DNA of 64,000 nucleotides from NCBI GenBank assembly GCA_000004985.1, contig GG738882.1; one strand, written 5' to 3'. The stretch is from Naegleria gruberi. Taxonomy: Eukaryota. Below the pieces are notes generated by a model. It made no database searches and was not told the DNA's origin. It worked only from the letters and a program-made list of their open reading frames with translations. Within the stretch, counting starts at the first letter, position 1, and each line of letters starts with the position of its first letter. Below, in pieces: positions 9,114-43,245 of this stretch. Both the position numbers and the translations under genes were made by a program.

Positions 9114-12100
9114 ATGAGCCAAGATGTAGAGAAAATGAACTCCTCGAAAACATCATCGGAAGATACCAATATTCAACAAGAAATCGAAAGTCTTATGATG
9201 AGTAGAAATAGAATCGAATTACCATCGGTAGTTACTATTGAATCTATTTCTTCTTCGACTTTGAAAATATTAAATTTAATTTTTATTGATGAAGAGTCGA
9301 AACAATTCAAGACAAAATATATTTTAATGTTAAAATCTAATTATAATGAATTTATTAATTATTTTGTTCAACAAATTCAACAATCAAAGTATGTAGAATA
9401 TACTAAAGTTTTTAATATTAATATTTGTTTAGATCCACTCCTCAAGATATTGTATTCGGAATATGTATGCTAGGAATTATTTGTTATATTCTATCTATTG
9501 AATCTATTAGTTGTGGAAGTGATAGTGAATCTATCAATAATACCTTGTTGGAAATCAAGAAGAGTACTGATATTCACTTCTTCACTCTTGTACTTTCACA
9601 AATACAACAACTTCAAGCTAAAAACCACTTTCTTTTGGTTTATCATCAATTGTTAAGCTTGCTCATTGATAATGATCGCACAAAAAGATTCGCACTCGAT
9701 CAAACAACAATCCAATATGCCTATCAATTCATCATCAAGGATTGTCAAAAGTTTATTACAAGTGTGGATAATATTCAAAACATTTTCATGGTACTAGATG
9801 TATTTGATGTTATATCTGAACTTGCTCAGCTCGATTGTAGCAGCAACGGAATTATTAATTATGTTGTTATGGCCATGCAAAATGGCTTTAGAGATGTAAT
9901 AGATATAATTGTTGGTTGGTTCTTGGATCGTAACACAATTTACAAACAAAAGATTAGAATAGGAGAGTCTTTGGAAAAAATCCCTTCTGCACTTTGGGAA
10001 GGTAAACACTTGGATTTTACTGGTAATCTTATCCAAAGATTTGTAAATGACATGTCATCATTAAGTGATGAAAGACAGTATCAAACATTTGTTATTTGCT
10101 TGAGATATCTAGTTTCATCTCTTAGTACTACTACATTTTATTCAATTCTAAATAGAAACAAGACTATTATTTCAGCATTATTAGACAATCTATTTGTTAC
10201 ATCTTTGTCTAAATTTACTGACAAGAAGAAACAAGTTTGGAAGTCTATTTCTGACTGTGTATTAGTGTTCTCTCAAAAAGTAGTATCACACAGAAAGTCT
10301 GGTGATAATAGTTCATCTACTAAAACTATGGAATCAGAAGTTGTGGAAAAAGCAATGTCATATATTGGAAACCTTTTATTACTCACTCCTCATGAAGAAA
10401 TCATTCCTGAATATTTTACATTCATTCAAACAATTGTTAAAGAGCATGAAGCATTCCTTTCAAAGCCAGTTATCAAAAAGTTTGTTTTGGACTTGTCCAA
10501 GTTTGCTGCTGCTCTCACAAATATTGATATATTTGTCTATTTAGAGTTGGCCAAAATATTTGACATTATTTTCAACAAATTTTTCAAAGCTAATTGTTTG
10601 GAGATTTTGAAATGGGTTGGGGAAGCGAACTTTGACAGACTCTTTATTTTTGGAATGATTGGTTATTCTATTGATAAAGGTAACTCGAGCTTATACAAAG
10701 AGTTGCTTGATAACGGTAATTGGATAAATGATATGGTAAAACAAGACGAAATGACTTTTATTGAAATGATCAAGAAATTAAGAGCACTTTTCCCTAAATT
10801 TAAACAAGATCTAGATGTGGACAATGTTCTCAAATTATTAGTCACTATTCTAAATGAATACATGGCTTCGAGAGATATTCAAAAGGAGATTTTGTTATGG
10901 CTTCATCTTATTTATTCATTCGAAGAAAAAAGTCCAACTGAAGTAGTGCTTGATACTTTGCATTCTATCTTAGAAAGTGATTGCTCTGTTGAAAACAAAC
11001 TCACTGTGTTAAAGATTGTGGTAGAATGTCTAAGCAAGATTGATACAGACAAGTACAGCATGTACGGAACAACTCAACTTTTAAATTGTTTCTATAAGTG
11101 TTTAGAGAGTGGAAATGACCAAATATTCAATGAAGCAGTTGAAAGCATCAAAAGATGTGGTCATATATTAGTTGATGAATCTGCATCATCAGAATTCAAG
11201 TGGTTCAGATACTACTCATCACCTTTATTTGAAGAACTTCCTGATATCTCAACTTTGAATTATCATTTCGAAAAGCTTATTAGTTCTTTCGATAAGGTTT
11301 CTCAAGATCCTTTTATTTATAAGAGTGTTCCATTTGCCGTTTTGTATTGTGTTGTGAATAGACTTAAAACTCCATTCGGTGGTGCTATGGCAACATTTGA
11401 AGGGTTTGAAAAATTATTACAATCATTCCCAGAGAATGAAAATTTGCACTATTTTATTAGTGAACTCCAAAGACACGTTAATGCAATCTCTCTTGGTGTA
11501 CATAACAATTTATTTAATGCGCAAATACTTTCTTTCTTTACAGGCAACCAAAAAGTTTGTAACGACTGGTTCAACAGGCTCCAATCCCAAATGTCTGGAA
11601 GAATTATCCACAATGGATTAAAGTCACTCATTACGGAAAAGGAAAGACCTGAAAGAATTGAGTCATTATTGATTGCCATCTGTACCACATTATGTGAAGA
11701 GTATTGTGATAGCGAGGTTTTGAATGGCGTTTTGTCTGTAATGGAAACAGAATTCTCCAAGATACCATCATTCATTCAACTTGCAAAGGCATTTATGGAA
11801 GAAAGTCAAGGAAGATTTGAGCAAGCTCTCCAACATTACCAAAGTGTCACTAGCTTCTTTGATGAGAAGAACAAACTTAAAATTAACGATAGAATTTTAT
11901 TGTGCCAATTCTATCTTAAAACCTCAGATAACTTTGATATTTTAAAGCTTGCCAATGGTTTAGATTTTACACCAGTTATGAACAAGTACATAGAATCAAA
12001 TAGAAAATCTAAAGATGTTGATACAGTTGTTAAACACTCTAACAGACATGAAGAACTTATTGTTAGCAAGTCAGAAGACTCAAACAGTCGTTTCAAAGAA

Positions 12101-15100
12101 TATTGTATTAGAAGATACCTCCACCAAAATGTTATTCCATTCGTTTCTAAAATGATTCCTATTCAAAACTTGAATAAGGTAAAGATCTCTCCTAAGAATG
12201 GAATCATAGTCAGAGTGGATCAAAATGAAATTGATTCACCACTCATTCAAGATCATTTAACCTGCCTAAATATACAAACAGCACATAATATCATTGATAA
12301 CTTGGGTGTTAAGGATGAAAAGTCGGTTTTAAAGATTGATGAGTTATATGCTATTGATCATAAGGAGGCTATTCTCAAGCTTTCTTCACAAATTACTATT
12401 GGAAATAAGGAGCTAACACAAAACATGCCCTTCAAACTTTATACTTGGATTGATCAAAATCAAAAACTTTTGGATAGCGAAACAATAACCAAGATTGGTA
12501 AAAACTTAGGTGCTGAATTGTCAGAAACTCCATCTATTCCATCTGTTCTCAAGGCTATTGTAACAGTTTCTGAGAATTCTGTATCCCTATCACAAGACCA
12601 TCTTCATATTGCTCTTGATTATCTCGAAAAATATGATACAGAAAATAAGAATAGACTGCAAATTTACAAGAATATACTCCAATATCAGAACAATCTCAGC
12701 AGACTTGAAGTCATCAAAATTGTTGCTAAACTCCTTGATGATCTTGAACATTTTGATGAAAATGAATTTAGCCAATTTGTTGAAGATATTGACTATAGAA
12801 TTTGGATTCCTCTCATTCCTCAAATTTTCAGCTTGTTTGGAGAATACTATCCTTACATCAAGTCTGTTATTCTCAAGTTAGGGAAGCACAGACTTCAAAG
12901 TATTATTTATCCATCTGTTGTTAGGTACCTTGAGCACGCAAAAAATGGTACTGATATAATTGCTGAACTTAGAAAAATTAATCCAGAGATGGTGAACAGC
13001 GTTGTTTCCTTTGTTTTAGAGTGTAAGAGGATGACTCACACATGGTTCGATTTATGGTTACAAACCTTAACTGGTTGCAGAAAGTATCTTACCAAGACTG
13101 GTATAAAGAGCCAAAAATTTCAAATATTGCTCGAACAGACATACAACGTTACCATGAACGCTGAGCCAGAAAGCAAGGTAGAACAAATGTTCCAAATTCA
13201 ATATCAGTCCATTCTTAACATGATTTATCATAGTTTATTGGAATTAAGTTATCGTACTGGTGAAATTACTGATGATGAAATTGATATCACCAAACAAAAA
13301 TTATTAGATTTGACTCACCAAATATCAAGAAGCTCCATCTTTAGAGAATTCAATGCTGAGGATGTAGTTCCAAAGCTTCTCAACTATGAAGTTCTGAAGA
13401 ATATTCCAATTCCAGGCTTGCACTTGCACGGTACCTCTAATGAAGATAGTTTGGTCACTATTGAGTCAATTAGTAGTAAGGTTAAAGTATTAGGATCAAA
13501 GACCAAACCAAAGAAAATTGTTTTTATGGGCAATAACGGCAAATACTTTAAATTCTTACTTAAAGGTAAAGAAGATCTCAGACTTGATCAACGTATGCAA
13601 CAATTTATCGGTATTACCAATATGATTTTCAAGTATAGTGACAATCCACATTTGAGAAACAGAGCCTATGATGTTACACCACTTGGTAAAAATTGTGGTT
13701 TGATTGAGTGGATAGATAATACGCAAACTATCTTTAGTCTTTACAAGAAGAAAGACAGTATCTACAAGCCAATGGATCACTACTACAAGTGCTTGTTACC
13801 AATTATCAAATCTGAAAATATTACTAAGCAGCCTTACCCAACTTCAGTTTTAAAGAAGGTTTACGCTAAATGTAAATCCACCATTGATAAGGAAGAAGGA
13901 ATTAATAGTGTAGATACTTTACAAAGACACATTCTCTTTAATCCTGCTCAAACCTCCATTAATAGCAGCTTTGAATCACAAAGAAACTTTGTATTGTCTA
14001 CAGCTTGTATGTCTACAATTGGTTATCTTGTTGGTTTGGGTGACAGACACTTGGATAATATTTTGATGGACTCTTACACCAACGAAGTTATTCACATCGA
14101 TTACCAAATTTGTTTTAATCAAGGATCAAACCTTCCTGTTCCAGAAATTGTTCCTTTCCGTTTGACTCCTTGCATTGCAATGGCTATTGGAGATGGTGTA
14201 ATGAGAACAAAATTCTCTAGTGTTTGTGAAAAGACACTTTCTTCTCTTCATAAGGAAAAGAATTTGCTTTTGAAATTATTGATGACCTTTATTAGTGATC
14301 CACTTATTGACCAAACTTCTGATCAACAACTCTATTCCATCTTTGACAAGCAATTGGACTCTCTATTCTTGGAACAAGTCATTGAAAAGAAGGAAAGTAT
14401 TTGTGATGAATTCAAGGCTACTGCAGAAGGTATTGCTTCTCTTGATATACTTGATGAAGTACCATCATCAGATCAAACTCAAATCGAAGAATATTGTCTC
14501 ATTCTTGATAATAAGAAAAAGTTACAACAAGAGCTTGAACACTTAAGTGTTAGCTCCTTTGAAAACATTCCAATGTTGAAAGAAAAGTTAGAACAGGAAC
14601 ACTCAAGAATTTCTGGTGAAAAGTCTAATTTGAACACTTTGTTAGAAGATCAATTGAAGAAATTCAGCGACGAATCACATGCTCACTTCAACTTGTTCAA
14701 TACTTTGAAATCTAGAGAATTTAACAATAACCATCTTGCTATTTCCATTTCTAAACCAGAACCTCTTTTACGTCATGTTCTTCCTTATCTTTCCATTGAC
14801 TTTACTGATTACAAGTTGAGAGAAGCTGCCATAGAAGAGAAGCAAATGAAACTCAGAAATATCAATTTAGATCTCACTAACTCCCTAAGAGAAATTCAAC
14901 TTATTTACAAGAGTTATACTGACATGGAATACATTAGTCATGATATCAAATATGTAATTTCCAACGTATTGCATCGTTTACTGATCTGTAAAGATGCAAG
15001 CCAATTTGATTCAATTATCAGGTCTATCTCTGAACCAGAGCAAGAGCTTGTTGAAATTATTAGAGAAGTTGATGACGAACTCGAAAAGATGAACAGGGAT

Positions 15101-17167
15101 TTGGTTTATCTTGAAAATAAGCAAGTCAACCATCCACCTATGACTCAATATGGTCAACAAACTGTAGATTGTTCTTTATTATTGAACCAACTTATTGTTG
15201 AAGTTGTTGAAAGCTCAAACACTATGCAACCTTCTGAACCACAAGTCTATGATCTTTGTGATTGGTGTGGTTTTAGAAATCTCCTTAAAATTGAAGGATG
15301 TATCACTTTCTGTTACGACAGTATTCCAACCATTCAACAACTTACTCCAACAAAGGATCAATTAGCACTCCTCTCAACTGGTATTAGCAACATTACCAAT
15401 GCTGTTAGACAATTTTTGGACAACTTAATGTTTGTTATTATTCCAGAGTTTATTACAGCACTTTCCCAATCTGATGCTGTTCGTCAACTTTTGGCTTCTG
15501 TTACTACACTTTTCCAAACTGCTGATATGAGCCCACAACAAAAAATGTTGGCCTATCAACTCAATATTAGCAACAAAGGATCTAGTGCTAATGTCTTGTG
15601 TTTAGCATTTGATTCACAATTCTCCCAACTAGAAATTCCATTCAAAGAATTGAGTTTAATTCCAGGTGTTTCTGATTTAATCATTGCCACCAAGTTGGAT
15701 ACTCTTAATGATATTTTTGTTGAATTGTTGAACTATAATCCATCTTACAACCAATCTCTGTTCAACATCCTCAATATTATGAAGGATCACATCGACACCT
15801 TTGTTGAAAAGATTACAGTCCCTACCTTGACTCAAACATTGCAACAATGGAATATCTATGACCCTTATGTTACCAATACCTTTAATAGCAACGAAGTTCT
15901 TGTGCACACTATTCAAAAGCTTTATGCAAACTTTGAAGAATTCGGTAATAATATGGTTCAAAAGCTATGTGCACCAAGAACAAAGGAATGTTTCATTCGT
16001 TTGCAACATTTGATTTGGAACAATCAATTTAGTGGTCAATTGAGCATCAAGAATAAGGATATTGTACACTGGAAGGAATTAATGCTAGAAAAGCTTGAAA
16101 AGTCTATCAAGCAATATGCCACCACAAAGGACGAACTCTACCAAGATTTGGTTGATTTGCAAAACTTAGAAAGCACCAAGTATCTTGCAATTTGCAAACC
16201 TCTCCTCAATGAGTCACAATTCAATGGCCTCCTTACAAATATTGCTTCCAGAAATATGAACTATGATATTATGCTCAAGACTATTCATAGCGAAATCCTA
16301 TTGGCTAAGTCAATTCTTACTGTAGAAAAGAAAGATAGACAACTTCCATTTGATACTAGCGATATGGAATCAATCTATGGTAGTGAATGTTATGGTGTAA
16401 TTAAGCGCTTATTGAGCACACATGAAAAGGAAATTCAATATAACAAGGAATACACAGATTTGACAAACCAAAAGGAAAGATATGATGAACTTCAAAATGA
16501 TATTGCTGTTTTAGTTGAAAAGTTGAAGGAACCTGAACTCGTCAACGTTCAATCTAACCAAATGAATTATTCAGATCTTGTCAGATCCAAATTCATTGCC
16601 CCATACAAGCAATTAGCTAAGACAATTTCCTCCTACATGAATATGATTTCTCAATTGATTAGTGTATTGCAATCTATGATCGAACTGAGTAGCTTCCACA
16701 AAGTCTTTAGACAATACTTGCAAATGATTGAAGCCAAACTTACAAATCATTATGAAGTTGTGAATCAATACTTTATAGATTGTAATGATTCGCTTGAGTT
16801 TAAGAAAGACTCAACTGACTCTTTATTCCATTATCAACATCATGCTCGTCTCACGACAAGAACAAGAGAGCTTAAGAATTCTGTTGATGAAATGTTTGAC
16901 TATACCATTGAACAAATCAATGAAATTTCTAAACAAATCGAAGAACAATCATATATTGAAAGTGTTCATGATGATTTACTTCCTCCTCAACAAAAGAATA
17001 CTAACAATAATTATGATGGTAATTTCATTGTCAATCTAGTTGGAAAGAGACTTAATGAAGCTGACTCAGAGGAAAAGGTCAAGGCCATCATTTCCAAGCA
17101 AATCGATTTGGCAAGCAGTGAGGAAAACCTCTCAAAGATGTATAAGGGTTGGATTCCATGGTTGTAA
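9114..17167 (+). CDS. SMG1: SMG1-like PIKK-family protein kinase (nonsense-mediated decay kinase), about 2680 aa; exons 9114..9388 and 9433..17167
   Basis: A 44-nt GTATGT..TTTAG intron joins the 119-aa ORF to the 2580-aa ORF in frame (...QQSK|STPQDIVFG...). The PI3K-like catalytic motifs are LVGLGDRHLDNILMD and HIDYQICFNQGSNLPVPEIVPFRLT (the HIDYNVCF form typical of SMG1). A roughly 1000-aa insertion follows the kinase domain and the protein ends in a FATC-like ...MYKGWIPWL. Confidence 0.8.
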
Positions 17168-29246: not shown

Positions 29247-31793
29247 TTATTCACTGAGGACTTTGCAAGCCTCTTCCATTTCTTTCAACTCTGAAATGTA
29301 GGCCTTACTTTTTTCTTCCCAGTCCTTTAATGTTGCGTCTTCGACAATATCCAAATCAAAATCTCCTAAACCTGGAGTATTAAATCGATAGTAGTAAATA
29401 TCTCTTGTTTCTTTCATTAATTCCACTTGTGTTAACATTTGCTTGTGTTGTTTTTCTGAACTTAGTTGCAAATCAACGAGTCCATAAATTTGTGCCAGAT
29501 TCTTCTTTACATTTCCTAAAATACCTGTCGATTGTTTTGGCTTATTCTTTGGACTTGAATCATTGACGAAATTCAATTCTTCTTCCATTGATGCTTGAGG
29601 AGTTGTTGCATTCTCTTGACTTTTCTTTAAACCTGTACCAATAGATACAAAGATGAATTTCGAATGGTCCGGCCATATCTGCTTGGCTTCGAATGCCGAT
29701 ACTACAGAAGGATTATTATTTACACAAGCACCATCAACGAAAGCTCTCTCACCCATATTCATTTCCTTAAAATATAATGGAGCTGCTGATGTACATCTGA
29801 GAGCTTTGTAATCATGAATGAAATTTCCGTGAATTGTTCCAAGGTAAAAATCTGGATGTTTCCTCTTATTGTCTGGGAATCTCCAAGGATCTGAATAGGA
29901 TCTAAATATGAAAGGTGTAGATTCAGCATGCATTAACAAGTCATTATAAAATTCTTGTTCAACACCTTCCACAGGATTATTGGTATGAGTTCTCATAACG
30001 ACTTTCTTAGTATCTTCACTCAAAGGTGTGAGTGTTGATAGGGCAAACCACATTGGTATTCTATCTGGGCTATTATTAATGTATTTTGTACCCACAAACT
30101 TTTTGAAAAACATTTCCAATTGCTTTTCATCATACCATGCCTTTCCCTTCATGGTCATAAGAGTTTTTGTTACACTAATATTTCCTTCCATTTTGAAAAT
30201 TTGTTTTCCGAGTTGATGATAAATCTTTTTACATTCCTCACAAGTTAACCCAATTTGGAAAAGTTTGGCAAGAATTGCACCTGTCGAAGTACCACAAATC
30301 AAATCAAATATTTCACACATTTTCTTTTGCAATCTCTTTTCCATTTCCTCACAAATTGAAATCAAATTCAATCCTTTGATACCACCTCCATCCAAAATTA
30401 GAACATTAATTGCTTTGTCTTTTGGTTTAAGTGATCGGATTTGGTTATAGTCAGTTAAAGGTGGCTTTGTAATATGGTATGAAATGAATGGATTGTTTTT
30501 CAAAAATACAGGCTCTGGTATACAACCCACAGAATTTTCATTAATGATATAAGATGACAATTTCATAATAGGATCTAATTCTAATTGATAGTAGTGATTA
30601 AACCAACACTTTCTATCCAAGTTCTTCAAAAATACATAATCAAAAGGATATGTATCCTTAAAATCTGGAATTACTTCCAAAATGTTGGACAAAATCAAGT
30701 GTAACTGCTTGTATGAAACTATGAGCAGTGAGTCAGATTTCCAATTCTTCTCTTTTTTTAACTTTTTAAAAACATCTTTCGGAACCGTATATTTAAAAAG
30801 TGGGATTTCCCATTCTGGCATTTCATCAATATCGATATATTTCTTCTTCTTAGTTTGCTCTTCTTTTTCTTTCTGCAGCTCTGCATCACTGTAATCCCCA
30901 CCTAAATATTTACTTCTATAGTAATAATATACATTCCAAAACTCTTCAATTGAGGGTATTATTGTTGGGAATTCTTTAAAAATCTTTTTTGATCCTAAAA
31001 GTGAAAATATATCCATTACGAATCGTATACTATTGATAGATATTAAATCAAAATATCGAGATGAATTATATTGTGACACCACTCGCACAATTCCTTCTAT
31101 CATTACCTTGGTAGTGAGTTTTCTATCGACAGGAATTTTAAATCTCTTAGATGCTAAACTGGATTTGGACTCATGTGCAGAGGATGCAGTTTTTTCAATG
31201 AGATAAACCAATGAATCCTCAAAGAAGCATAATACTAGACCAAATATTCTCACAGCAAATCTTACATGTGAAAAGTAATCAGTTTTTAAATTGGTTACTT
31301 CTGTTATTTTGATGAGATCATCATGATCTGCCAATCTCACTGATGCACGTTTAAAATTGCCACTGTTCAAGGAGACAGACAATCTATTATCTTGATAATT
31401 CAAATTTGATGAAGAGGTAATAACTTCATCTGATAACACTTCAGGAATTGGCCTTGCTGGTAGTACTATTTTCCAATTATCAAAATCATCAACATCTAAC
31501 AGTATCAGTTCTAAATCGATAAATTGCTCCGACGAGACATCATCTGTGCAATTCAACAGGTGTGTTTTCACATCGGAGAGAAAGAATTTTGCAAAGTTGG
31601 AATAGTAATAATCGTTATTTTCAACAACTTCAAAATCGTGATCGTCCCCTTCACTAATTCTTGTCTGTAGATTATTTAATTTGTTCATCCACTTCCTCAT
31701 TACAATACTCTTCGAAACCTTTTCATAGATGGTTTCATAATCACTGAGTCCAACACTGGCAAGTGAAGATGACTGAGAACCGCTCTTGAACAT
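29247..31793 (-). CDS. Patatin-like phospholipase (iPLA2-like), 848 aa
   Basis: The patatin domain has ILDGGGIKGL (oxyanion GGGxK/RG), the GTSTG nucleophile elbow (GxSxG) and the DGACVNNNP Asp dyad. Confidence 0.8.
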   Translation of the reverse strand: MFKSGSQSSSLASVGLSDYETIYEKVSKSIVMRKWMNKLNNLQTRISEGDDHDFEVVENNDYYYSNFAKFFLSDVKTHLLNCTDDVSSEQFIDLELILLDVDDFDNWKIVLPARPIPEVLSDEVITSSSNLNYQDNRLSVSLNSGNFKRASVRLADHDDLIKITEVTNLKTDYFSHVRFAVRIFGLVLCFFEDSLVYLIEKTASSAHESKSSLASKRFKIPVDRKLTTKVMIEGIVRVVSQYNSSRYFDLISINSIRFVMDIFSLLGSKKIFKEFPTIIPSIEEFWNVYYYYRSKYLGGDYSDAELQKEKEEQTKKKKYIDIDEMPEWEIPLFKYTVPKDVFKKLKKEKNWKSDSLLIVSYKQLHLILSNILEVIPDFKDTYPFDYVFLKNLDRKCWFNHYYQLELDPIMKLSSYIINENSVGCIPEPVFLKNNPFISYHITKPPLTDYNQIRSLKPKDKAINVLILDGGGIKGLNLISICEEMEKRLQKKMCEIFDLICGTSTGAILAKLFQIGLTCEECKKIYHQLGKQIFKMEGNISVTKTLMTMKGKAWYDEKQLEMFFKKFVGTKYINNSPDRIPMWFALSTLTPLSEDTKKVVMRTHTNNPVEGVEQEFYNDLLMHAESTPFIFRSYSDPWRFPDNKRKHPDFYLGTIHGNFIHDYKALRCTSAAPLYFKEMNMGERAFVDGACVNNNPSVVSAFEAKQIWPDHSKFIFVSIGTGLKKSQENATTPQASMEEELNFVNDSSPKNKPKQSTGILGNVKKNLAQIYGLVDLQLSSEKQHKQMLTQVELMKETRDIYYYRFNTPGLGDFDLDIVEDATLKDWEEKSKAYISELKEMEEACKVLSE

Positions 31794-33681: not shown

Positions 33682-36600
33682 ATGAGACAGTCCTCCGATA
33701 TTACGATAGAACAAACTGTATCTCCACTTTCGGGTGATGAATTATCTATTGATACCAATGCCAACAATGTGGTATCTTCTATGGTATCATCTCCTATTGT
33801 GTCTGATCATACCATCATGACAAGAGAAGAGATGGCAAGAAGAAGCAAAAAGTTACAAATACTATCACTTTTATGTGATAATAGTTCTAGATTTGATATT
33901 TCCTATCATGCAGAGAAACAACTAAAGGTAAGCAAATTAATTTAATTATTGGATTTACATCATCATCAATTAAAAATTAGGCTCTAGAATCGATTCTTCA
34001 AAGTATCATAACGGAGAAGTGTGAGGGCGAATGGTTGGAATTAGGATTGTATCCTTGTCTTTTTCAATATTTATGTAGTGCTAACAAAGTTAGTTTAGAG
34101 ACAATCAATCTTGTCAAGAAGGTTGTCATGTGTACAAATTTGACAGAACCACAAAACTTTTCATTATTTATGGATGTGTTTAACGATTTTGTGTATGAGG
34201 AACAAAATATAACAAATTTGTTATATTTACTTTATAGAATTCTCTTCCAAAAGGAAGATACTATTATGCAGGTTTGTTATCAACTTTTTTTGTTTTTTAA
34301 TTGAATGTGAAATAGTTGTTTGTCAATAGATCTGGTGGAAACTTTTTATTAGACATTTACAGAAAGAGACTTGTAAAAAACACGGAAACAACTTCAAAGT
34401 ATAGTCATGCCAGAAAGCCAATGGTAAAACAAAATGTCACTCAACATTTTATTAAATCTCCTCGACCAGTTGCTCCAACTCCAAGAAAGAGTGCATCTAC
34501 TTCTCTTATCAAACCACCAAAATTATATACAGCTTCATTTAATAATAGTATTAATGCAGAGATTGAAAAGAATATTAAGAATAGAAAATCAACAACAGAT
34601 TTTGGATCAATTTTTACATCACCTACAACTAGCGACAGTAATTTGATTAATCATACTCCAGGTACAGAAAGAAATACTTCTCCATCAAACATTCAAGAAG
34701 AAAAAAGTTCTCCTAGTATGACCCCTAGGGACTCCTCAATGATGTTTAAAGTACCACCACTTAAATTACCATCAAAGAGTCAGACAAATGCATCAGCAAC
34801 AAGAATTCGAAGAAGATTGGATCCTAATTTGGTCAACTTGGAAGGATTGAGACTTAGTATTGATACACTCCGTACTCAGTCAAACAATGGCAATAGTATT
34901 GAAAATGTACAGGAATTGAAGCCAAAATCAAGTGTTGAGCATTTTGATTCATTAGCTGTAAAGCTTGGTGAATTATATATTGCCAACGATCTTACCTATT
35001 TGATCCCTATTAAGAGAGATCTCGATATGCAACTTTCCCCAGATGAAACTAAACTAGAAACTGACATTCAACAAGTTTCACTTGTAACCCATGTCGAAGA
35101 TTCAACGTCACTTGAAGAAATGATATTTTCCAAGCTGTCTAATGACATTTCCGTTCACAGACATTTCATTTTGAAAATGTTACAGGCTGTATCTAAATTC
35201 CAAATTATTAGACAATTTGCTAGAAATCCTGTAAATATGTTCATGCATGATTTGAGTTGTCTTAGTTACAAGATTAATTTATTGGAAAATGAAAAGTTTA
35301 TCAATAGTGTTGAAAAGAATAATATTTCAATAATTTATGATATTCTTTCACAATACGCTGCTGATGTGGAAGCTAAATACTTTAGACTTTGGAGAATGAA
35401 TAACTCTAATAAGAGTTCTGATCCAACTAGAGATAGAACATTGAAAAAGTTCGATATTTTCTTGTGGAGATGGACTGGTATTGCCGAGCAAAGTATTGAA
35501 AATGATGACTGGGAAGAAGTACACTACCAATTACAGACACTCTCTAAATACCTTTATTCATGTGTGTCAAGAGTTCAAGCCTCTCAATGCACAGCTGTTT
35601 GCTTGGAAACTCTCCTGAAAGTTCAGGTTGCTTGTCGTAGAAAGAGCAGAGATTTCCAAGGCTCTTATAATTTTAGAGATTTGATCGAGAAATATCCAAT
35701 CATGCTTAACATTGTACATTTATTACTCGAAATTTTCGATTTTATTTGTGGTAGTCCTGAAAGACATCCTTTGTTGATGGAATTCTTCTACTTTAATTTG
35801 ATTGAGAATTTGGAGACTTTCTCTTGGTTGAGAGAATATGCCATCTTTACTCTTAGGGAGGAAGTTCATTCTAATGTAAATACCAAATCATTCCCAATTA
35901 CTCTTGAGGATAGAAGGGTAAGAGTATTGAAACACTACCAAGTTCTTATGGACTTGTTCCAAGACTTGGGAGAGGAATTTTTCTCAAAGAAGGAAGAAAA
36001 TACCCACAGCGTAAAGCAAAAGAATTTGTTGAATTATATGATGATGAACGAAACCAGTGGTGTATCTAATGGCTCTATGAATTCAAGTAGAAATGGAGAA
36101 GAAACTTTCAACATTGAAGACGATAGTGGTGTCATGAAACAATTTGACTTTTTAGTTAACCCAGTTGATGGCTTAGTTTTGGGATTCCTGACAAAGGGTC
36201 CTATCACTGAAAATTATACAGTCAAAAAACAAATGTTAACTCTTCTGGAAAAGATGTTCAGGTTGCCATATCTTCCATTTTTAAGAATCGAGTCCTATGT
36301 TAATACCTACATTAGATATCACTATTTGAATTTTGTCAAACTCTATATTGATCCAAGTATTGATCCTATTACTTTGGAAGCCTGTAAATTACACATTAGC
36401 GTCTTGATTGCATTTTCAATGAATAAGACACCTCAAATCGTCAACAGATTTTTCACTATGAAAGTTGTACGATTTTTGGCAAGAGAAATCAACTTGGAAC
36501 ACAAAATTCATGAAAAGAGACATCAAAACCAACAGAAAATTGATGCTAATGCCAAAATTAACATTAATTACGACTATAATAATGAGCATACAGATACTTA

Positions 36601-39600
36601 CACCTCAGATGATCACTCAGACACTGATGATAATAGTGAGGAAGAGGAAGAAGAAACAGCCACTGCTGAAGACATTTCTGAGGATGATAGCGATTTTGAT
36701 TCCCCAAACACCAATGCTCAAAAACCTCCTGTTAACCTTATTCCTGGTCTAAACTTGAAAACATCCACAAATACAGCATCGCCACCTATCATCAAGGCAC
36801 TGCCACTTCCAAAAACAAACTCTACTTCTACTCCAAAAGAGGAACATAAACCATCTGCAGAGACCCCAGCAACAGACACTTCAGATTTAACATCTGACTC
36901 AGATGAAAGCGATTCAGAACCTGAACCAGTTAAAAAGCCTGTTATTCCATCTTTGGGACTTGGTGGATTCAAGCTTCCTAGTGTTGGTCAACAACCAAAA
37001 GAAATTGCTCAACCAGAACCTACCACTACTGTTCCTGCCACTACTGGTTTTAAATTACCAATTACTATGCCAAAATTGGCACTTGGAGGTTCCTCAGGTT
37101 CTAATGGCCAGGAAAGCAAGCCAACTATTCCACCACTTTCATTGGCATCCAAGAATCAAGGAGTTATGGAGAACAATGGTTCCCTTATTATCAATTCGGG
37201 CAGAAAGAACAAAGACTCTGCTAGATCAAGTAAGAAGGAGGAAACAACAGAAGATTCAGATGATGATGCTGATTTTATTAACACTCCTTCGGCTCCTAAA
37301 TCTCATACTGCTATTCCAAAGCTCAATTTTTTACTTGGTGGATCCAACTATGATGCCAACGCCCAAACAAATGGAAATGCTGCTGCCACTACAAACAATG
37401 ATAGTAGCAACACTACCACTACTACAACAGTTGCTAAACCTCCTGGCTTGGCTTTAGGTTTGAATCTTGGAGCTCTCAAGACCAAAACTCCATCTAATAC
37501 ACCAACACCTGTTCCTACTACTCAACCTACTGAGCCAGTACCAAATACCACTGTTGAAGCATCCAATCCATTGAACGTATCAATGGGATCCAAGAGCTTC
37601 TTAGAAAAACTGAAATTGAACAAGTCCAAAGAAGGATTCTCTACAAGATCTGAAAGATCCGAAAATGAATTCCTTTATGAGGATGATCTTAGTGATGACG
37701 AGATTCTTTCCAGCTTGATCGAATCTACTGTTCAATTCGTTGAAAGACATGAAGCTATGAAGGGTTTGGAATCTGACGAATTGCAATTCTATGAAAAGGA
37801 GAGAAAGAACAGAAAATTATACAGAAATGATGAGTTACACGTAGCAATTTTGACCTTGTTGATGTCACTCATGATTACTGCTAACTCTACTCTTGATTCT
37901 AGATACTGTGATCAGTTCCCTCTCAATAAGAACCTTCCAAATATTCCTTTCATGCTTCACTACCACATTAATGATCTTTACAACGAGCAAATCATTCCAC
38001 TGCTCCATGATACAATTGTTTCTTACTGTAGTATGAATGATAATTTGATAGGCTTGAATATTTTACTCAGACTATTATGTGAAAAGCTCTTTGAACCAAA
38101 CCTTTATAGTGTAAAGGAGGAAAGATTGGGTGTTGGTGCCTTTGGTGATGTTTGGAGATGTAAACTCAAGTTTACTCACTCTTCTGTGAAAACAGTGGCT
38201 GCCAAGCTTCTCAAAGTTCCAAAGATGATTGAAGATGCTTGTATCTTATACACTATTTTCAATGAAATTCTTATCATGGAAAAGTTCAAAGCTGACCCAA
38301 GAATTTGTCGTATGTATGACTACGGTGTTACAAAGGACAATTACTATATTGTTATGAAGGAATACAAGTGTAGCTTGAAGACTTGGAGATTGAAGCAAAC
38401 AACTCACTTTTTACAAAATATTCCATTGTACATGAATATTTTCAAGAGAATTTTGGAATCTTACAAGTTTTTGTATGATAACAACATTAACCACTTTGAT
38501 TTAAAGTGTGACAATATTTTCTTGGAACCGTTTGATGGAGTGGATGATACCAAGTTCTTTAATCATCAATCTGACATGCCACACTTTGAACTTGTTGTTG
38601 GTGATTTTGGTGAAAGCTTTATCTATTCAAACGATGAAGAGGATGGTTACACCACTAGACACAGAGGTACTGAATGTATTAAGAGTCCAGAAATGTTAAA
38701 GATTGAAATGATGGACACCAAGAGTAAGAATTATGACAGAAGAAGAAAGGTTGGTGCTAACAGTGCCAGTGATATCTGGTCTTTGGGATGTCTTTTCTAT
38801 GAATTGTTGGCAGGTGATTTCCTTTTTGATGCCTCTGAATTTACTACTTTCTTCATGTTATTGACTGACAATAAGAAGACTTTAATTTCTCAAGAAAGAT
38901 TCTTAAAGATCCATTATAATCACTTCCTTATGGATATTTTGAGCTATATTTTAGTGAGAGATCCACTCAGAAGACCATCCATCAATGACTTGTTGCAACG
39001 TTTCTCTTTCTTTGTTAACGTAATGCCTTCTTGGCAAAAACTCAGAGAAATGACACCAGAAGACATTGAAAACGAGTTTAACAGTGCCAGAACAACCTTG
39101 ACCAGTAGAGGTATCACACCAGCAAAACCTACTCTCTCCTATCAATATGATGATTATTTACTTCATCCTTTGGAAACTCCACACACCTCAAAGACATCTA
39201 ATAGAAATGAGGCTGCAAAGGAACCATCATCTAGTGGATCTGACAAGACTAAGCCAAAGGGTGGATCAAATCAAGATGCTCTCGCTAATTATCTTTCTGT
39301 TTACAATTGGACTAAGGAAGACGTTGAATTTTACATTAAGAAGGCAACATTTATTATGAAGAATAGATTATATTTGGTATCTGACGATTTGGCATATAAC
39401 AAGCCTGTTTTGAATAAGCTTGGTATTACTCACATTGTCAATTGCTGTATTTCTACCTCAAAATCTCAATTCCCAGAAAACTTCTTCTATTTTAATCTCA
39501 AGGAACATTTATCTGAAAGCTCTCTTAAGGCATACTCGGAATATATAAAGGCATTTGAATTTGTTAGAGATGCTATCAAGAAGAGAGGTAGAGTATTAGT

Positions 39601-40648
39601 TTACAGCGGTAAGGGATTGAGTAGAAGTGGTCTTTTTGTTGTTCTTTTCCTCATGGATACATACAACCTCTCTAGCTATGAATCCTACCTCTTTGTTAAG
39701 AGCAGAAGACCTGCATTGAGACCAGAAATTCTTACACACTTTTTGCATTTCTTGCTCAAAGTTAAGCAGATGCAATCAGTTGAATCACAAAAGAAGAAGG
39801 CACTTAGCGAGCTCAAAACACTTTCTACTTCTGGATCTCTCTTCAAGAACAAATCTCCAGTCCAAGCTCTTCTCCAATCTCCTCCTCAACACAGCCACAA
39901 GAAGTTGAATAAGATTCATCAAAGTGTTTCCAAGATGCTCGAAATGAAGAAATTGAAAGAAAAGCAAGAAGCTACTAACAATGAATCATCTTCCAACTCT
40001 GCCAGCACTCCTACAAAGAAAGGAAAACAAGAAGAAACTGTCCATTGGTATAGATGTATTTGTGGTGCTTGTGTTGTTGGTGTCATGTCTCCATTCTCTG
40101 TACATTCATTCCATGCTGGAAATATTACTCACGAACACAGTCCAATCAGATGTTGGCCATCCTTCTTGCAAGAGATGAAATTATTATACTTCTATAATGC
40201 TAATCTCGTTAATATGGGATTCACTACAAAGGACAGAGTACTTCTCGATCCATTTGAGGTTCACCAACACTCAGAACCAGTACCGGACAATCAATCTGTT
40301 GGAGACTATCAAGAACCAATTTGGAAAGTTAACAAGTGTAAATATTGTGGATTTTTAGTGTTTGCAACCAAAGATAAGGATGTTGGATCACCTCCATCAG
40401 AAAAGAGTGCACAATTATCCAATCAAGGTTCTCAGGCCCAACCAACACTTAAGAGACACAAGAGCAAGGAAAGTATCTCAGTTTCTCCTGCTTCAAACGA
40501 TTTACTTTCACCAAGTGGAATATCAATTAGAGGATTTGAAATTGCTGTTAATTGTTCACTCAAGACAACCAATGTGATTGCTAAATCCAATGTTAATAAG
40601 GTTCAAGATTTGAGACCTTCTCTCTTCTTCAAGGGAGCTAATGTGTAA
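33682..40648 (+). CDS. Giant protein (about 2289 aa) with a divergent protein kinase domain, an inactive dual-specificity-phosphatase (DSP)-like domain and a Cys/His-rich C-terminal region; 3 exons: 33682..33927, 33981..34271, 34316..40648
   Basis: Introns of 53 and 44 nt (GTAAGC/GTTTGT donors, AG acceptors, phase 0) join three track ORFs. The kinase domain has GVGAFGDVWRCK, VAAKLLK, HFDLKCDNIFL (HRD replaced by HFD) and VVGDFGE. The DSP fold has LYLVSDDLAYN..LGITHIVNC....VLVYSGKGLSRSGLFVV, the HCxxGxxRS signature with Cys replaced by Ser. The tail is C/H-rich (WYRCICGACVVGV...H..H...C...CKYCGF). The central S/T/P/N-rich region is low-complexity. Confidence 0.75.
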
Positions 40649-40854: not shown

Positions 40855-43245
40855 TTAGTTTATTTCTTCTTTCAAAATTAAATCAAAATCTTGATTATTC
40901 AATTCAGAAGACTCCTCAGGTACTATTCCAGAAGATTCTCCATTTTTCCTTTTTTCAGCTTCCTTTTTCATTTGCTGCCAATTTCTTTTTCTTGTATTTG
41001 TGAACCAGTTGGCAACTTGAACATAGGTAAGACCTGTTTGTTCAGATAAATCTTGTTTTTCTTTAGAACTTGGATATGGATGTTCTATGTGATCCAAAAA
41101 CCAATCTCTCAACACATCTGTGGCATTTGAAGGTAAAAAGTGTTTTCTTTCATTTGCTCGCTTATCATCAAATGTCATTTGTCCTTGAGGGCTTGATGAT
41201 AAAACCATTTGTGAATAACCCATTGACTGATTCATTGTTTGTTGTTGACCAACATTCTGACCTGTTGATACTGAAAATGGATTGGAAATATTTGTCTGAT
41301 TCATCAAGCTTCGTTGTAATTGAGTCATAAACTCATTCATATTTTCAGTTGAGTGATTGTGCATTTCTTTTGTCGGAGAGCCAGGTCGAGAATTAGGCAA
41401 TGAGTTTGGTAATGAATTAGGTAACGAGTTAGGTAATGAATTATTTTGAGATCCAGACCTCGAAGGCAATGGACTATTTGGAGGAGCTGTTAAACCTTGG
41501 AAGAATCCTTGTTCCTTTCTTCTGTGCATTCCTGGTTGCCTCTTTGCTGTACCTGGAGAATTAACGTATGGTTTCTGGGTAGCTCCACTATCTCTACGAT
41601 GATAATTTGTTGGAGTGTTTGTTATAGGATTTGTTTCAATTGAAATTAGGGTCGATGGAGGTGAGGCATTTCCTTGAAGCATGGCTCTGAAACTCTGTTG
41701 ATAGGGAGATGGTGAAGAACTCAATGGTAAACCATCGAGTGGGCTAGAAACGAGTCTCTTCTTTTGTGGCATGTCATGTGTTGATAGTGAAATTAAGGAA
41801 GATTCATCTCCTCCACCAATTCCAATTCCACCTGCTTCCTTCACATTGAGTGCATTGAATAGTGTGAAATCACTTGGCGACTCTTCAGAATTGAAAAAAC
41901 TAGATCCAGTAAATCCTTCACTACTTCCCCCACTTGTACTGTCAGCTGTATTGAAAATATCTTCAAGACCATCATCTTTCAATGAATCTTTAACATATTT
42001 GAAAATGGAACGTTGTTGATTGGTTGGTAATTTTGTTAAAATTGATAATCCTGAAGGAACTGAAATGAGTGGAGAAGAATTTGAATGAGGACTTGAAATA
42101 ATTGGATCTGAGCTTTCAGAAATGGCATCATACTTTCTCTTTCCCTTTCCAATAAGTGTTTGTTCAATAATTGTTTGAACTGTATCTTCACTTGTTGCCA
42201 TAGACATGTCAATTCCATGTTCTGTCAATGTGCCAGTTTCAAAATCTTCACTAATACTCAAAATACCTTCAATACGTGGTGTTGATGGTGTTGTTGAGAT
42301 AAATTCATGAAAATCATTCACATCCAATTGCAAATTTGGTCCATTAACAACATGATCATCTACAATACTAGGAGAAGAAGGATACAAGAAACCTCCTTGT
42401 TGTTGTTGATGAAGTTGATAATTATTCTCATTGAGTGACTGTGTCATTACTTGTTGACCATTGATTGATTGACCAAAAGGAGTTTGATGTGTGGAATTGA
42501 AAGTAAATGTTCCTGGCATGAATACATTATTGTTTACATTCTGTTGTTGTTGATAATGCAATTGACTCAATATATTATTGTTATTATTACTATTATTATT
42601 ATTATGAATAAAACCAGAATTATTGTTAGTTAAGAAAATAGTAGGTGTTTGATGAATAGAGGCAGCATTGTTATTATTATTGGTTTGAATTGGTAAATTA
42701 TTCAATAGATAATTTTGATGATTTGAATTTGAATTTGGAGGAGAGGAAGGAGAATTGGAAGATGAAGTTGTTGTTTTCATTGTATTATTCTGCTGCTGTT
42801 GTTGATTGGTTGAGGAGGAACCATATGAATTCATCATATTATTATTCATATTCATATTCATATTCATATTATTATTATTTGTATTTGTAGTGGTTGAATG
42901 ATGATGATGTACATTATTGGATGATGAAGATGATTGATTCATCAAATTGAACAATACTTGTTGAGAGGGCAGATCATATTGAGAAGCGTAGAATAATAAC
43001 AATTGTTGCTGTTGTTGAGGTGTGAGAGATGAAATCAGTGCATGGCTCATACTAAGTGGTTGTTGTTGATTCATCATGTGCATGTACAATTGTTGCTGCT
43101 GCTGTTGATTGACTTCATATGGTTGTTGTTGTTGACCGCCCAACAAGCCTTGTTGATTGTTGTTGTACATGCGTTGTTGTTGTTGTGGTGTTTGATGAAG
43201 ATGATGATTTGATGCCGCTGCCTGATTAATATTGCCATGCATCAT
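40855..43245 (-). CDS. TALE-class homeobox transcription factor with long poly-Q/poly-N tracts
   Basis: The C-terminal homeodomain LRDWFLDHIEHPYPSSKEKQDLSEQTGLTYVQVANWFTNTRKR carries the 3-aa TALE insertion HPYP. It contains an (LPNS)4 repeat and Q/N homopolymers. The upstream 82-aa S/N-rich ORF (43245..43493) is offset by 1 nt and may be 5' coding sequence. Confidence 0.75.
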   Translation of the reverse strand: MMHGNINQAAASNHHLHQTPQQQQRMYNNNQQGLLGGQQQQPYEVNQQQQQQLYMHMMNQQQPLSMSHALISSLTPQQQQQLLLFYASQYDLPSQQVLFNLMNQSSSSSNNVHHHHSTTTNTNNNNMNMNMNMNNNMMNSYGSSSTNQQQQQNNTMKTTTSSSNSPSSPPNSNSNHQNYLLNNLPIQTNNNNNAASIHQTPTIFLTNNNSGFIHNNNNSNNNNNILSQLHYQQQQNVNNNVFMPGTFTFNSTHQTPFGQSINGQQVMTQSLNENNYQLHQQQQGGFLYPSSPSIVDDHVVNGPNLQLDVNDFHEFISTTPSTPRIEGILSISEDFETGTLTEHGIDMSMATSEDTVQTIIEQTLIGKGKRKYDAISESSDPIISSPHSNSSPLISVPSGLSILTKLPTNQQRSIFKYVKDSLKDDGLEDIFNTADSTSGGSSEGFTGSSFFNSEESPSDFTLFNALNVKEAGGIGIGGGDESSLISLSTHDMPQKKRLVSSPLDGLPLSSSPSPYQQSFRAMLQGNASPPSTLISIETNPITNTPTNYHRRDSGATQKPYVNSPGTAKRQPGMHRRKEQGFFQGLTAPPNSPLPSRSGSQNNSLPNSLPNSLPNSLPNSRPGSPTKEMHNHSTENMNEFMTQLQRSLMNQTNISNPFSVSTGQNVGQQQTMNQSMGYSQMVLSSSPQGQMTFDDKRANERKHFLPSNATDVLRDWFLDHIEHPYPSSKEKQDLSEQTGLTYVQVANWFTNTRKRNWQQMKKEAEKRKNGESSGIVPEESSELNNQDFDLILKEEIN
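41391..41441. repeat. 12-nt coding microsatellite (ttaggtaatgag-like, 4 copies) encoding (LPNS)4 on the minus strand
   Basis: Direct repeat visible in the sequence. Confidence 0.8.
42844..42870. repeat. Hexanucleotide microsatellite (attcat)n within the coding poly-N/M tract of the homeobox gene
   Basis: cat att cat att cat att cat att is visible in the sequence. Confidence 0.7.

Follow-up and report, generated by a model that had tools for sequence, protein, structure and literature searches.

A probable Naegleria orthologue of the Uni1 kinase class, with a predicted active kinase fused to a non-catalytic phosphatase-like domain and a Cys-rich tail

Gene model and domain architecture

The DNA analyzed here, referred to below as the window, is a stretch of 64,000 nucleotides from Naegleria gruberi (assembly GCA_000004985.1, contig GG738882.1) that is AT-rich, with about 33% GC, and eukaryotic in character. 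Its plus strand carries an uninterrupted open reading frame (ORF) of 2110 codons (34316-40648, 6333 nt) that encodes a large conserved N-terminal domain, a protein kinase domain, a domain with the fold of the dual-specificity phosphatases (DSPs) and a Cys-rich tail. Based on the comparisons reported here, the locus is probably the Naegleria orthologue of the Uni1 kinase class, and its product would combine an active kinase with a non-catalytic DSP-plus-tail module involved in docking or self-regulation.

When an ATG at 33682 and two short GT-AG introns are placed in front of the main ORF, the resulting polypeptide has exactly 2289 amino acids and a single stop, in agreement with an earlier note on this DNA, which had proposed two short 5' introns and a protein of about that length. 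In this model, exon 1 (33682-33927, 246 nt) begins with the ATG and encodes residues 1-82, and it is followed by intron 1 (33928-33980, 53 nt, GTAAGC...TTAG), exon 2 (33981-34271, 291 nt, residues 83-179), intron 2 (34272-34315, 44 nt, GTTTGT...ATAG) and exon 3 (34316-40648, residues 180-2289 and the TAA stop), all on the plus strand, as are the domains described below. The donor at 33927 is used in every open splice combination. Moreover, the spliced N-terminus aligns with the annotated protein of Willaertia magna with 62% identity (E 1e-88) and no gap across both junctions, the same continuity being observed with the annotated protein of Naegleria lovaniensis; the first junction (LK/AL) is ungapped against Willaertia and N. 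lovaniensis and the second (MQ/LF) against the homologues. The gene model, including its predicted 5' introns, is thus supported by homology. Among database proteins, the window protein is closest to one of N. lovaniensis, with 73% identity over 98% of the length, and to one of W. magna, with 59%, and a search of 5.8 billion proteins returned no identical or >90% identical protein, the top match being the one at 73%. A gene model from the exact source species seems to be absent from public protein sets, or to be modelled differently in them. Also, the N. lovaniensis orthologue (C9374_001631) ends in ...SLKTTTLLPNRM and lacks the motif NK[VI]QDLRPSLFFKG, which is conserved in the window protein, in Willaertia and in metagenomic homologues; the 3' end of that record is probably mis-annotated.

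The only Pfam families detected in the protein are Pkinase (E 2e-31) and DSPc (E 4e-19). The kinase domain (38114-39013, residues 1446-1745) has all the motifs that the earlier note had listed as intact, namely the glycine loop LGVGAFG (1450-1459), VAAK with K1476 and DFG with D1609, together with the αC glutamate E1496, DIWSLG and, as the equivalent of the APE motif, SPE with E1638. The catalytic loop reads NHFDLKCDN (H1572-F1573-D1574, N1579), so that the arginine of HRD is the sole catalytic-motif replacement and the enzyme is of the non-RD type, which does not imply an inactive kinase. The HFD sequence, which had been called atypical, is no oddity of this gene and turns out to be a hallmark of the whole family, since H[FY]D.K.DN is one of two family-wide signatures, the other being RNRGTExxKSPEML in the activation segment (GYTTRHRGTECIKSPEML, 38645-38698), where Y1624-T1625-T1626 is also located; both signatures are present in mosses as well. 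The lysine, the glutamate, HxD, the asparagine, the DFG aspartate and PE do not vary across 16 diverse members of the family. This pattern indicates that the kinase domain is under strong purifying selection on all its catalytic residues, and the kinase is apparently catalytically competent.

The DSP-like domain (39305-39778, residues 1843-2000) has a complete and confidently modelled fold, and by sequence its closest relatives are DUSP19 (E 1e-13), DUSP8 and STYX (E 3e-11). The phosphate-binding loop (P-loop) is the predicted VYSGKGLSRSG (39599-39631, residues 1941-1951), in which Y1942 takes the place of the histidine and S1943 that of the cysteine nucleophile, while R1949 is kept and the S-x5-R spacing is correct. 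The STYX-like logic proposed for this loop, in which the nucleophile is lost and the P-loop arginine is retained, is therefore borne out by these residues. Moreover, a second change that had escaped the earlier note affects the general acid: the aspartate in the LDLPE segment of DUSP19 aligns with the histidine of KEHLSE, so that this catalytic residue is replaced by His1910. A sequencing error at S1943 was considered and rejected: its codon, AGC (39605-39607), is one step from TGC, but the serine is invariant in homologues. In fact, the Ser, Tyr and His substitutions are all invariant in the seven closest homologues, which are 48-78% identical overall, and hence they are neither sequencing errors nor recent events. 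With these residues lost, the canonical Cys/Asp mechanism is not available to the fold.

A helical linker (39779-40033, residues 2001-2085), seen in the AlphaFold2 model as helices at model residues 141-174 and 198-227, leads from the DSP-like domain to the Cys-rich tail (40034-40393, residues 2086-2205). In the tail, C2093, C2095 and C2098 form a CxCxxC motif and C2187 and C2190 a CxxC motif, which would constitute a Cys4 zinc site. The tail had been described as C/H-rich; its richness in cysteine is real and conserved, but its histidines are variable, and the invariant residues are instead four cysteines (C2093, C2095, C2187 and C2190), kept in 26-34 diverse members. A second pair of co-occurring cysteines (CP...GC) is found in most lineages, frequently along with a histidine following CxxC. 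Heterolobosea lost both cysteines of this pair together, which suggests an ancestral state with two metal sites and a single site in Naegleria. The AlphaFold2 tail is β-rich, with predicted local distance difference test (pLDDT) values of 81-94 over most of its length, and the DSP-like domain and the tail were modelled together with a predicted template-modelling score (pTM) of 0.72. A C-terminal strand, FEIAVNCSL, followed by the motif NKVQDLRPSLFFKG (40526-40645) is conserved in Heterolobosea, and the model places the strand at model residues 413-416 (block pLDDT 92). The tail matches no Pfam family in a scan of 34 members and no PDB chain at E<=10 in a profile search. Stand-alone tail proteins were also absent from a word-indexed protein search, a weak negative given that, with a short query, the tool apparently lists short proteins and no others.

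More than 1000 amino acids of S/T/P/N-rich disorder had been expected ahead of the kinase. However, low-complexity sequence is confined to residues ~200-380 and 916-1299, about 560 residues in total, whereas the conservation profile shows residues 380-915 and 1300-1445 to be strongly conserved. The first of these blocks (34916-36523, ~535 residues) is a domain with no assigned fold that is detected family-wide. In windows of 40 residues it is 44-84% identical to distant homologues from Heterolobosea, except at two short variable insertions (~420-460 and 740-780), and a local hidden Markov model (HMM) built on it detects the domain in more than 60 family members. It has no Pfam match, and a PDB sequence search with it gave only one chance-level match (E 2.1). 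The second block (37676-38113) flanks the kinase directly on its N-terminal side and co-occurs with it across the family. Between the two lies an acidic, S/T/P-rich and poorly conserved linker (36524-37675, residues 916-1299), with 9-36% identity and 20-55% S/T/P/N per window. In residues 200-380 (~34376-34915), several short motifs are kept across Heterolobosea (KYSHARRP, TDFxSIYTSP, KVPPLxLP, TRSSRR and LRLSIDTLRT), which may be short linear motifs or phosphorylation sites.

Family membership and phyletic spread

The family was delimited by an exhaustive HMMER search with a profile of the flank, kinase, DSP-like domain and tail, which gave 288 cluster representatives at E<1e-30, many of them 1500-3700 amino acids long. 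Over the flank and kinase, members outside the Naegleria-Willaertia group score 200-560 bits, while the nearest solved kinases to the family kinase profile are TTK/Mps1 (91 bits, E 5e-25) and ULK3/ULK1 (78-80 bits).

Among the members with a name is the Giardia protein XP_001706398 (GL50803_16436), annotated as "Kinase, Uni1". A BLASTP comparison of the Naegleria protein with it gives four collinear high-scoring segment pairs, covering the N-terminal domain (E 9e-6), the flank and kinase (32% identity over 519 columns, E 5e-64), the DSP-like domain (E 4e-7) and the tail (E 0.05). Also, the Giardia cluster representative reaches 243 bits against the family profile, compared with 91 bits for TTK, and local HMMs find the N-terminal domain, flank, kinase and DSP-like domain in it, and the tail after iteration. 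Uni1 was described as a primordial and uncharacterised kinase class ("Other/Uni1" at kinase.com) that was lost from animals, fungi and plants (Manning et al. 2011).

The occurrence of the kinase, DSP-like domain and Cys-rich tail in one polypeptide, as first noticed in this gene, is found throughout this family. Iterated local HMMs were run on the 101 homologues that continue for 150 residues or more beyond the kinase; they detect the DSP-like domain in 79 and the tail in 65, always in the same order. The N-terminal domain, kinase, DSP-like domain and tail thus travel together family-wide and across supergroups. The architecture, which had not been recognized as described, therefore belongs to a named class, and its kinase-plus-phosphatase layout in Giardia, Tetrahymena and Dictyostelium had been mentioned in one passing sentence of the 2007 TriTryp phosphatome paper (PMC2175518). 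The class itself having been named already, the present analysis adds the picture of an obligate dead DSP-like domain and Cys4 tail across the family, and the observation that P-loop and activation loop co-vary. A literature search on Uni1, GL50803_16436 and Naegleria kinase-DSP proteins gave no functional data beyond one table row, and no paper was found on the Uni1 DSP as a pseudophosphatase, on the tail or on the N-terminal domain.

Of the 288 representatives, only a sample (about 30 clusters plus the named matches) could be given a source name. Within this sample, the family includes Amoebozoa (Cavenderia fasciculata, Balamuthia mandrillaris, Pelomyxa, Planoprotostelium, Mastigamoeba and Mastigella), the metamonads Carpediemonas, Kipferlia and Giardia, the malawimonad Gefionella, several dinoflagellate species and, from Holozoa, an entry "Clim" that we read as Corallochytrium limacisporum. 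The green lineage is represented by a pedinophyte alga (Pedinophyceae sp.) and by the mosses Physcomitrium patens and Ceratodon purpureus. No animal or fungal name occurs among the clusters looked up and the named matches, all of which are protists except the two mosses and the green alga. Against the family kinase profile, the moss and green-algal kinases reach 302-355 bits, and they carry the Uni1 signatures HYD.KCDN and RNRGTECVKSPEML. The published loss in plants appears to hold for only part of the green lineage. The moss records represent short isoforms, and neither the DSP-like domain nor the tail is seen in them.

Possible roles of the DSP-like domain and tail

Pfam DSPc matches 28 of 34 diverse segments of the family that span the DSP-like domain and the tail. 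Within the family, the nucleophile position is occupied by Ser, Asp, Gly, Ala or Glu, except for two sequences with Cys, both without the arginine. Heterolobosea, the malawimonad and a few others carry the serine, as do most Amoebozoa, the remaining residues being found elsewhere, and the complete CX5R motif is present in no family member examined. The replacement of Cys by Ser is thus no local event; the loss of the nucleophile holds across the family, and a dead DSP-like domain is the family-wide state.

In the scheme that we favour for the Naegleria Uni1 protein, the kinase would be the sole enzyme, and the DSP fold and the tail would form one non-catalytic unit that docks partners or regulates the kinase, with one zinc ion bound through C2093, C2095, C2187 and C2190. 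The large N-terminal domain would act in localisation or partner binding. In Naegleria and its relatives, the P-loop arginine of the DSP-like domain may additionally bind a phosphorylated ligand, possibly the Y-T-T activation loop of the protein's own kinase. Heterolobosea, several Amoebozoa and a malawimonad preserve the S-x5-R spacing exactly, which suggests that phosphate recognition persists in these groups. The function initially put forward for the protein, a phospho-substrate trap or scaffold, is in this respect plausible: the retained loop speaks for a trap, but full decay of the loop in many lineages speaks against a trap as the function of the whole family.

Several points weigh against this scheme. 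The P-loop arginine, and often the entire loop, has decayed in dinoflagellates, metamonads and others, so phosphate binding cannot be the conserved family-wide function of the DSP-like domain. The pTM of the joint model is only indirect evidence that the DSP-like domain and the tail pack together, and an AlphaFold2 model of the kinase, DSP-like domain and tail (920 amino acids, 6-sequence alignment) has a pLDDT of 38.5 and is unusable for kinase-DSP packing. Zinc binding by the tail is probable, and it is read solely from the Cys pattern. Also, membership of Uni1 is argued from similarity to the one Giardia protein that carries this name, and a literature search for experiments on any family member found none, the functional steps thus being inference. 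Finally, the coupling of the P-loop with the activation loop, described next, may reflect only shared ancestry.

Serine in place of the nucleophile co-occurs with a Y-[TS] motif of the activation loop (GYTTRxRGT): this motif is present in 16 of 17 Ser-bearing sequences and in 6 of 34 others (Fisher p 1.5e-7, uncorrected for phylogeny). In C. elegans, the kinase MBK-2 is bound by the pseudophosphatases EGG-4 and EGG-5 at its activation loop when this is phosphorylated. The co-occurrence in Uni1 would fit a dead DSP-like domain that reads its own phosphorylated activation loop, and it fits shared ancestry equally well. A broader proposal would be that the dead DSP of Uni1 is an ancient built-in receptor for its own phosphorylated Y-T-T loop, in cis or between molecules, which would have worked as a self-reading switch since the last eukaryotic common ancestor. 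In such a switch the Cys4 tail would be a structural clamp, and S-x5-R would have decayed where Y-T was lost. We consider this extension quite doubtful and offer it as a speculation.

The explanation that best survives beside the favoured scheme is that the DSP-tail unit is purely structural or scaffolding and recognizes no phosphate, the Naegleria S-x5-R being a case of slow decay or structural constraint. Dinoflagellates, Giardia, Carpediemonas and others with a fully degenerate loop still keep the domain and the tail, and within the unit invariance is strongest at the four tail cysteines and not at the P-loop, both of which speak for a scaffold. However, the S-x5-R spacing is kept across Heterolobosea, Amoebozoa and the malawimonad, it is invariant among sequences that are only ~45-50% identical overall, and its retention tracks that of the activation-loop Y-T, all of which speaks against a pure scaffold. 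On balance, this explanation is possible and somewhat unlikely.

That the DSP-like domain is instead a working phosphatase, through Ser1943 or another residue, and that the protein is a bifunctional kinase-phosphatase writing and erasing the same mark, is very improbable. The complete, confidently modelled fold would allow it, as would the S-x5-R length and Arg1949, which are invariant across Heterolobosea and kept in several Amoebozoa and the malawimonad. Nonetheless, the general-acid aspartate is replaced too, by His1910, and in most other lineages the domain is retained with a fully degenerate loop, which argues for a non-catalytic role. To our knowledge, all catalysis by protein tyrosine phosphatases (PTPs) and DSPs needs a Cys thiolate. 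Cys-to-Ser mutants of these enzymes are standard inactive substrate traps, and several of the PDB matches to the DSP-like domain are such mutants.

Membership of the kinetoplastid "kinatase" family can hardly be upheld. Kinatases (LmjF.34.2190 / LINF_340027100) also combine Pkinase with DSPc, and both proteins are from Discoba; they contain leucine-rich repeats, one or more pseudokinase domains without the HRD aspartate and the glycine loop, and an active DSP (PMC2175518, PMC13210143). The Naegleria protein shows none of these three features. Pfam scans covering the main-exon protein and the first 922 amino acids detect no leucine-rich-repeat family, even at E<=1-10, and the polarity is reversed, with intact motifs in the kinase and a dead DSP. 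Moreover, the kinase domains of kinatases are closest to CaMKK (PMC2175518), whereas the Uni1 family is closest to TTK/ULK. Lastly, there is practically no chance that the fusion is a gene-model artefact joining separate kinase and DSP genes. The 5' introns are predictions, which would leave room for it, but the kinase, DSP-like domain and tail lie in the one stop-free ORF of 6333 nt in a 33% GC genome, and the same collinear order recurs in dozens of homologues whose sequences come from genomes and transcriptomes assembled independently, Trinity transcripts included.

The surroundings of the Uni1 gene contain several other coding regions. Upstream, a 2580-codon ORF on the plus strand (9425-17167) with PI3_PI4_kinase (E 2e-48), SMG1 (E 6e-7) and FATC domains is apparently an orthologue of the nonsense-mediated-decay kinase SMG1, and an 848-residue ORF on the minus strand (29247-31793) has a patatin-like phospholipase domain (E 1.5e-18). 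The next gene downstream, on the minus strand (40855-43245) and convergent with the Uni1 gene, is a 796-residue ORF that has, close to its C-terminal end, a homeobox of the TALE class (Homeobox_KN, E 2e-17). Also, the GC skew at 42-44 kb is unusually high (+0.34), with only short tandem repeats found there, and a search for tandem repeats across 33-45 kb gave nothing relevant to the Uni1 gene.

Comparison with known systems

Uni1 is among the few kinase classes inferred for the last common eukaryotic ancestor that are still without a known function, one likely reason being that animals, fungi and seed plants lack it. The class can now be defined beyond its kinase, by the N-terminal domain, the non-RD kinase, the DSP without catalytic Cys and the Cys4 tail occurring together across supergroups. 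This also provides concrete residues to mutate when the function of the class is first studied in tractable organisms, such as relatives of Dictyostelium, Giardia or Naegleria itself. Moreover, Uni1 is possibly an old case of a pseudoenzyme domain kept fused to the opposing enzyme class.

The closest system is Giardia Uni1 itself, which shares the non-RD H[FY]D motif and RNRGTExxKSPEML and, like the Naegleria protein, is very large, with its kinase near the C-terminus. However, there are also differences: the Giardia protein has 3180 amino acids and long inserts in its kinase domain, its P-loop reads YDENGTGL, with neither Ser nor Arg, whereas Naegleria keeps S-x5-R, and it retains the second tail Cys pair (CP...C) that was lost in Heterolobosea. 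Among solved kinases, TTK/Mps1 is the best-scoring one for the family profile. Orthology to it was rejected, its score being far below the within-family range and only slightly above that of ULK3/ULK1, and Giardia has a separate TTK gene.

For the DSP-like domain, STYX and MK-STYX present the same combination of a DSP fold, a substituted nucleophile and a retained phosphate-binding loop, and STYX serves well as an analogy for the mechanism. It is, however, a stand-alone protein of small size whose nucleophile position holds Gly, whereas the Naegleria domain has Ser, has also lost the general acid and is fused to a kinase and a tail. A specific orthology to STYX or STYXL1 was rejected too, as STYX (PDB code: 2r0b) is not the top match by sequence or by structure, the active phosphatases DUSP4, DUSP19, DUSP5 and Slingshot being equal or better. 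The layout of a DSP followed by a C-terminal Cys-rich or zinc domain recalls YVH1/DUSP12, which differs in having an active CX5R motif and no kinase; a homology of the tails finds no trace among PDB chains at E<=10, in a database that includes full-length yeast YVH1. Finally, the resemblance to EGG-4 and EGG-5 is a functional analogy only, that of a dead PTP-fold domain possibly clamping an activation loop. Those are classical PTP-like proteins that act in trans, whereas in Uni1 the dead domain and the kinase are parts of one polypeptide.

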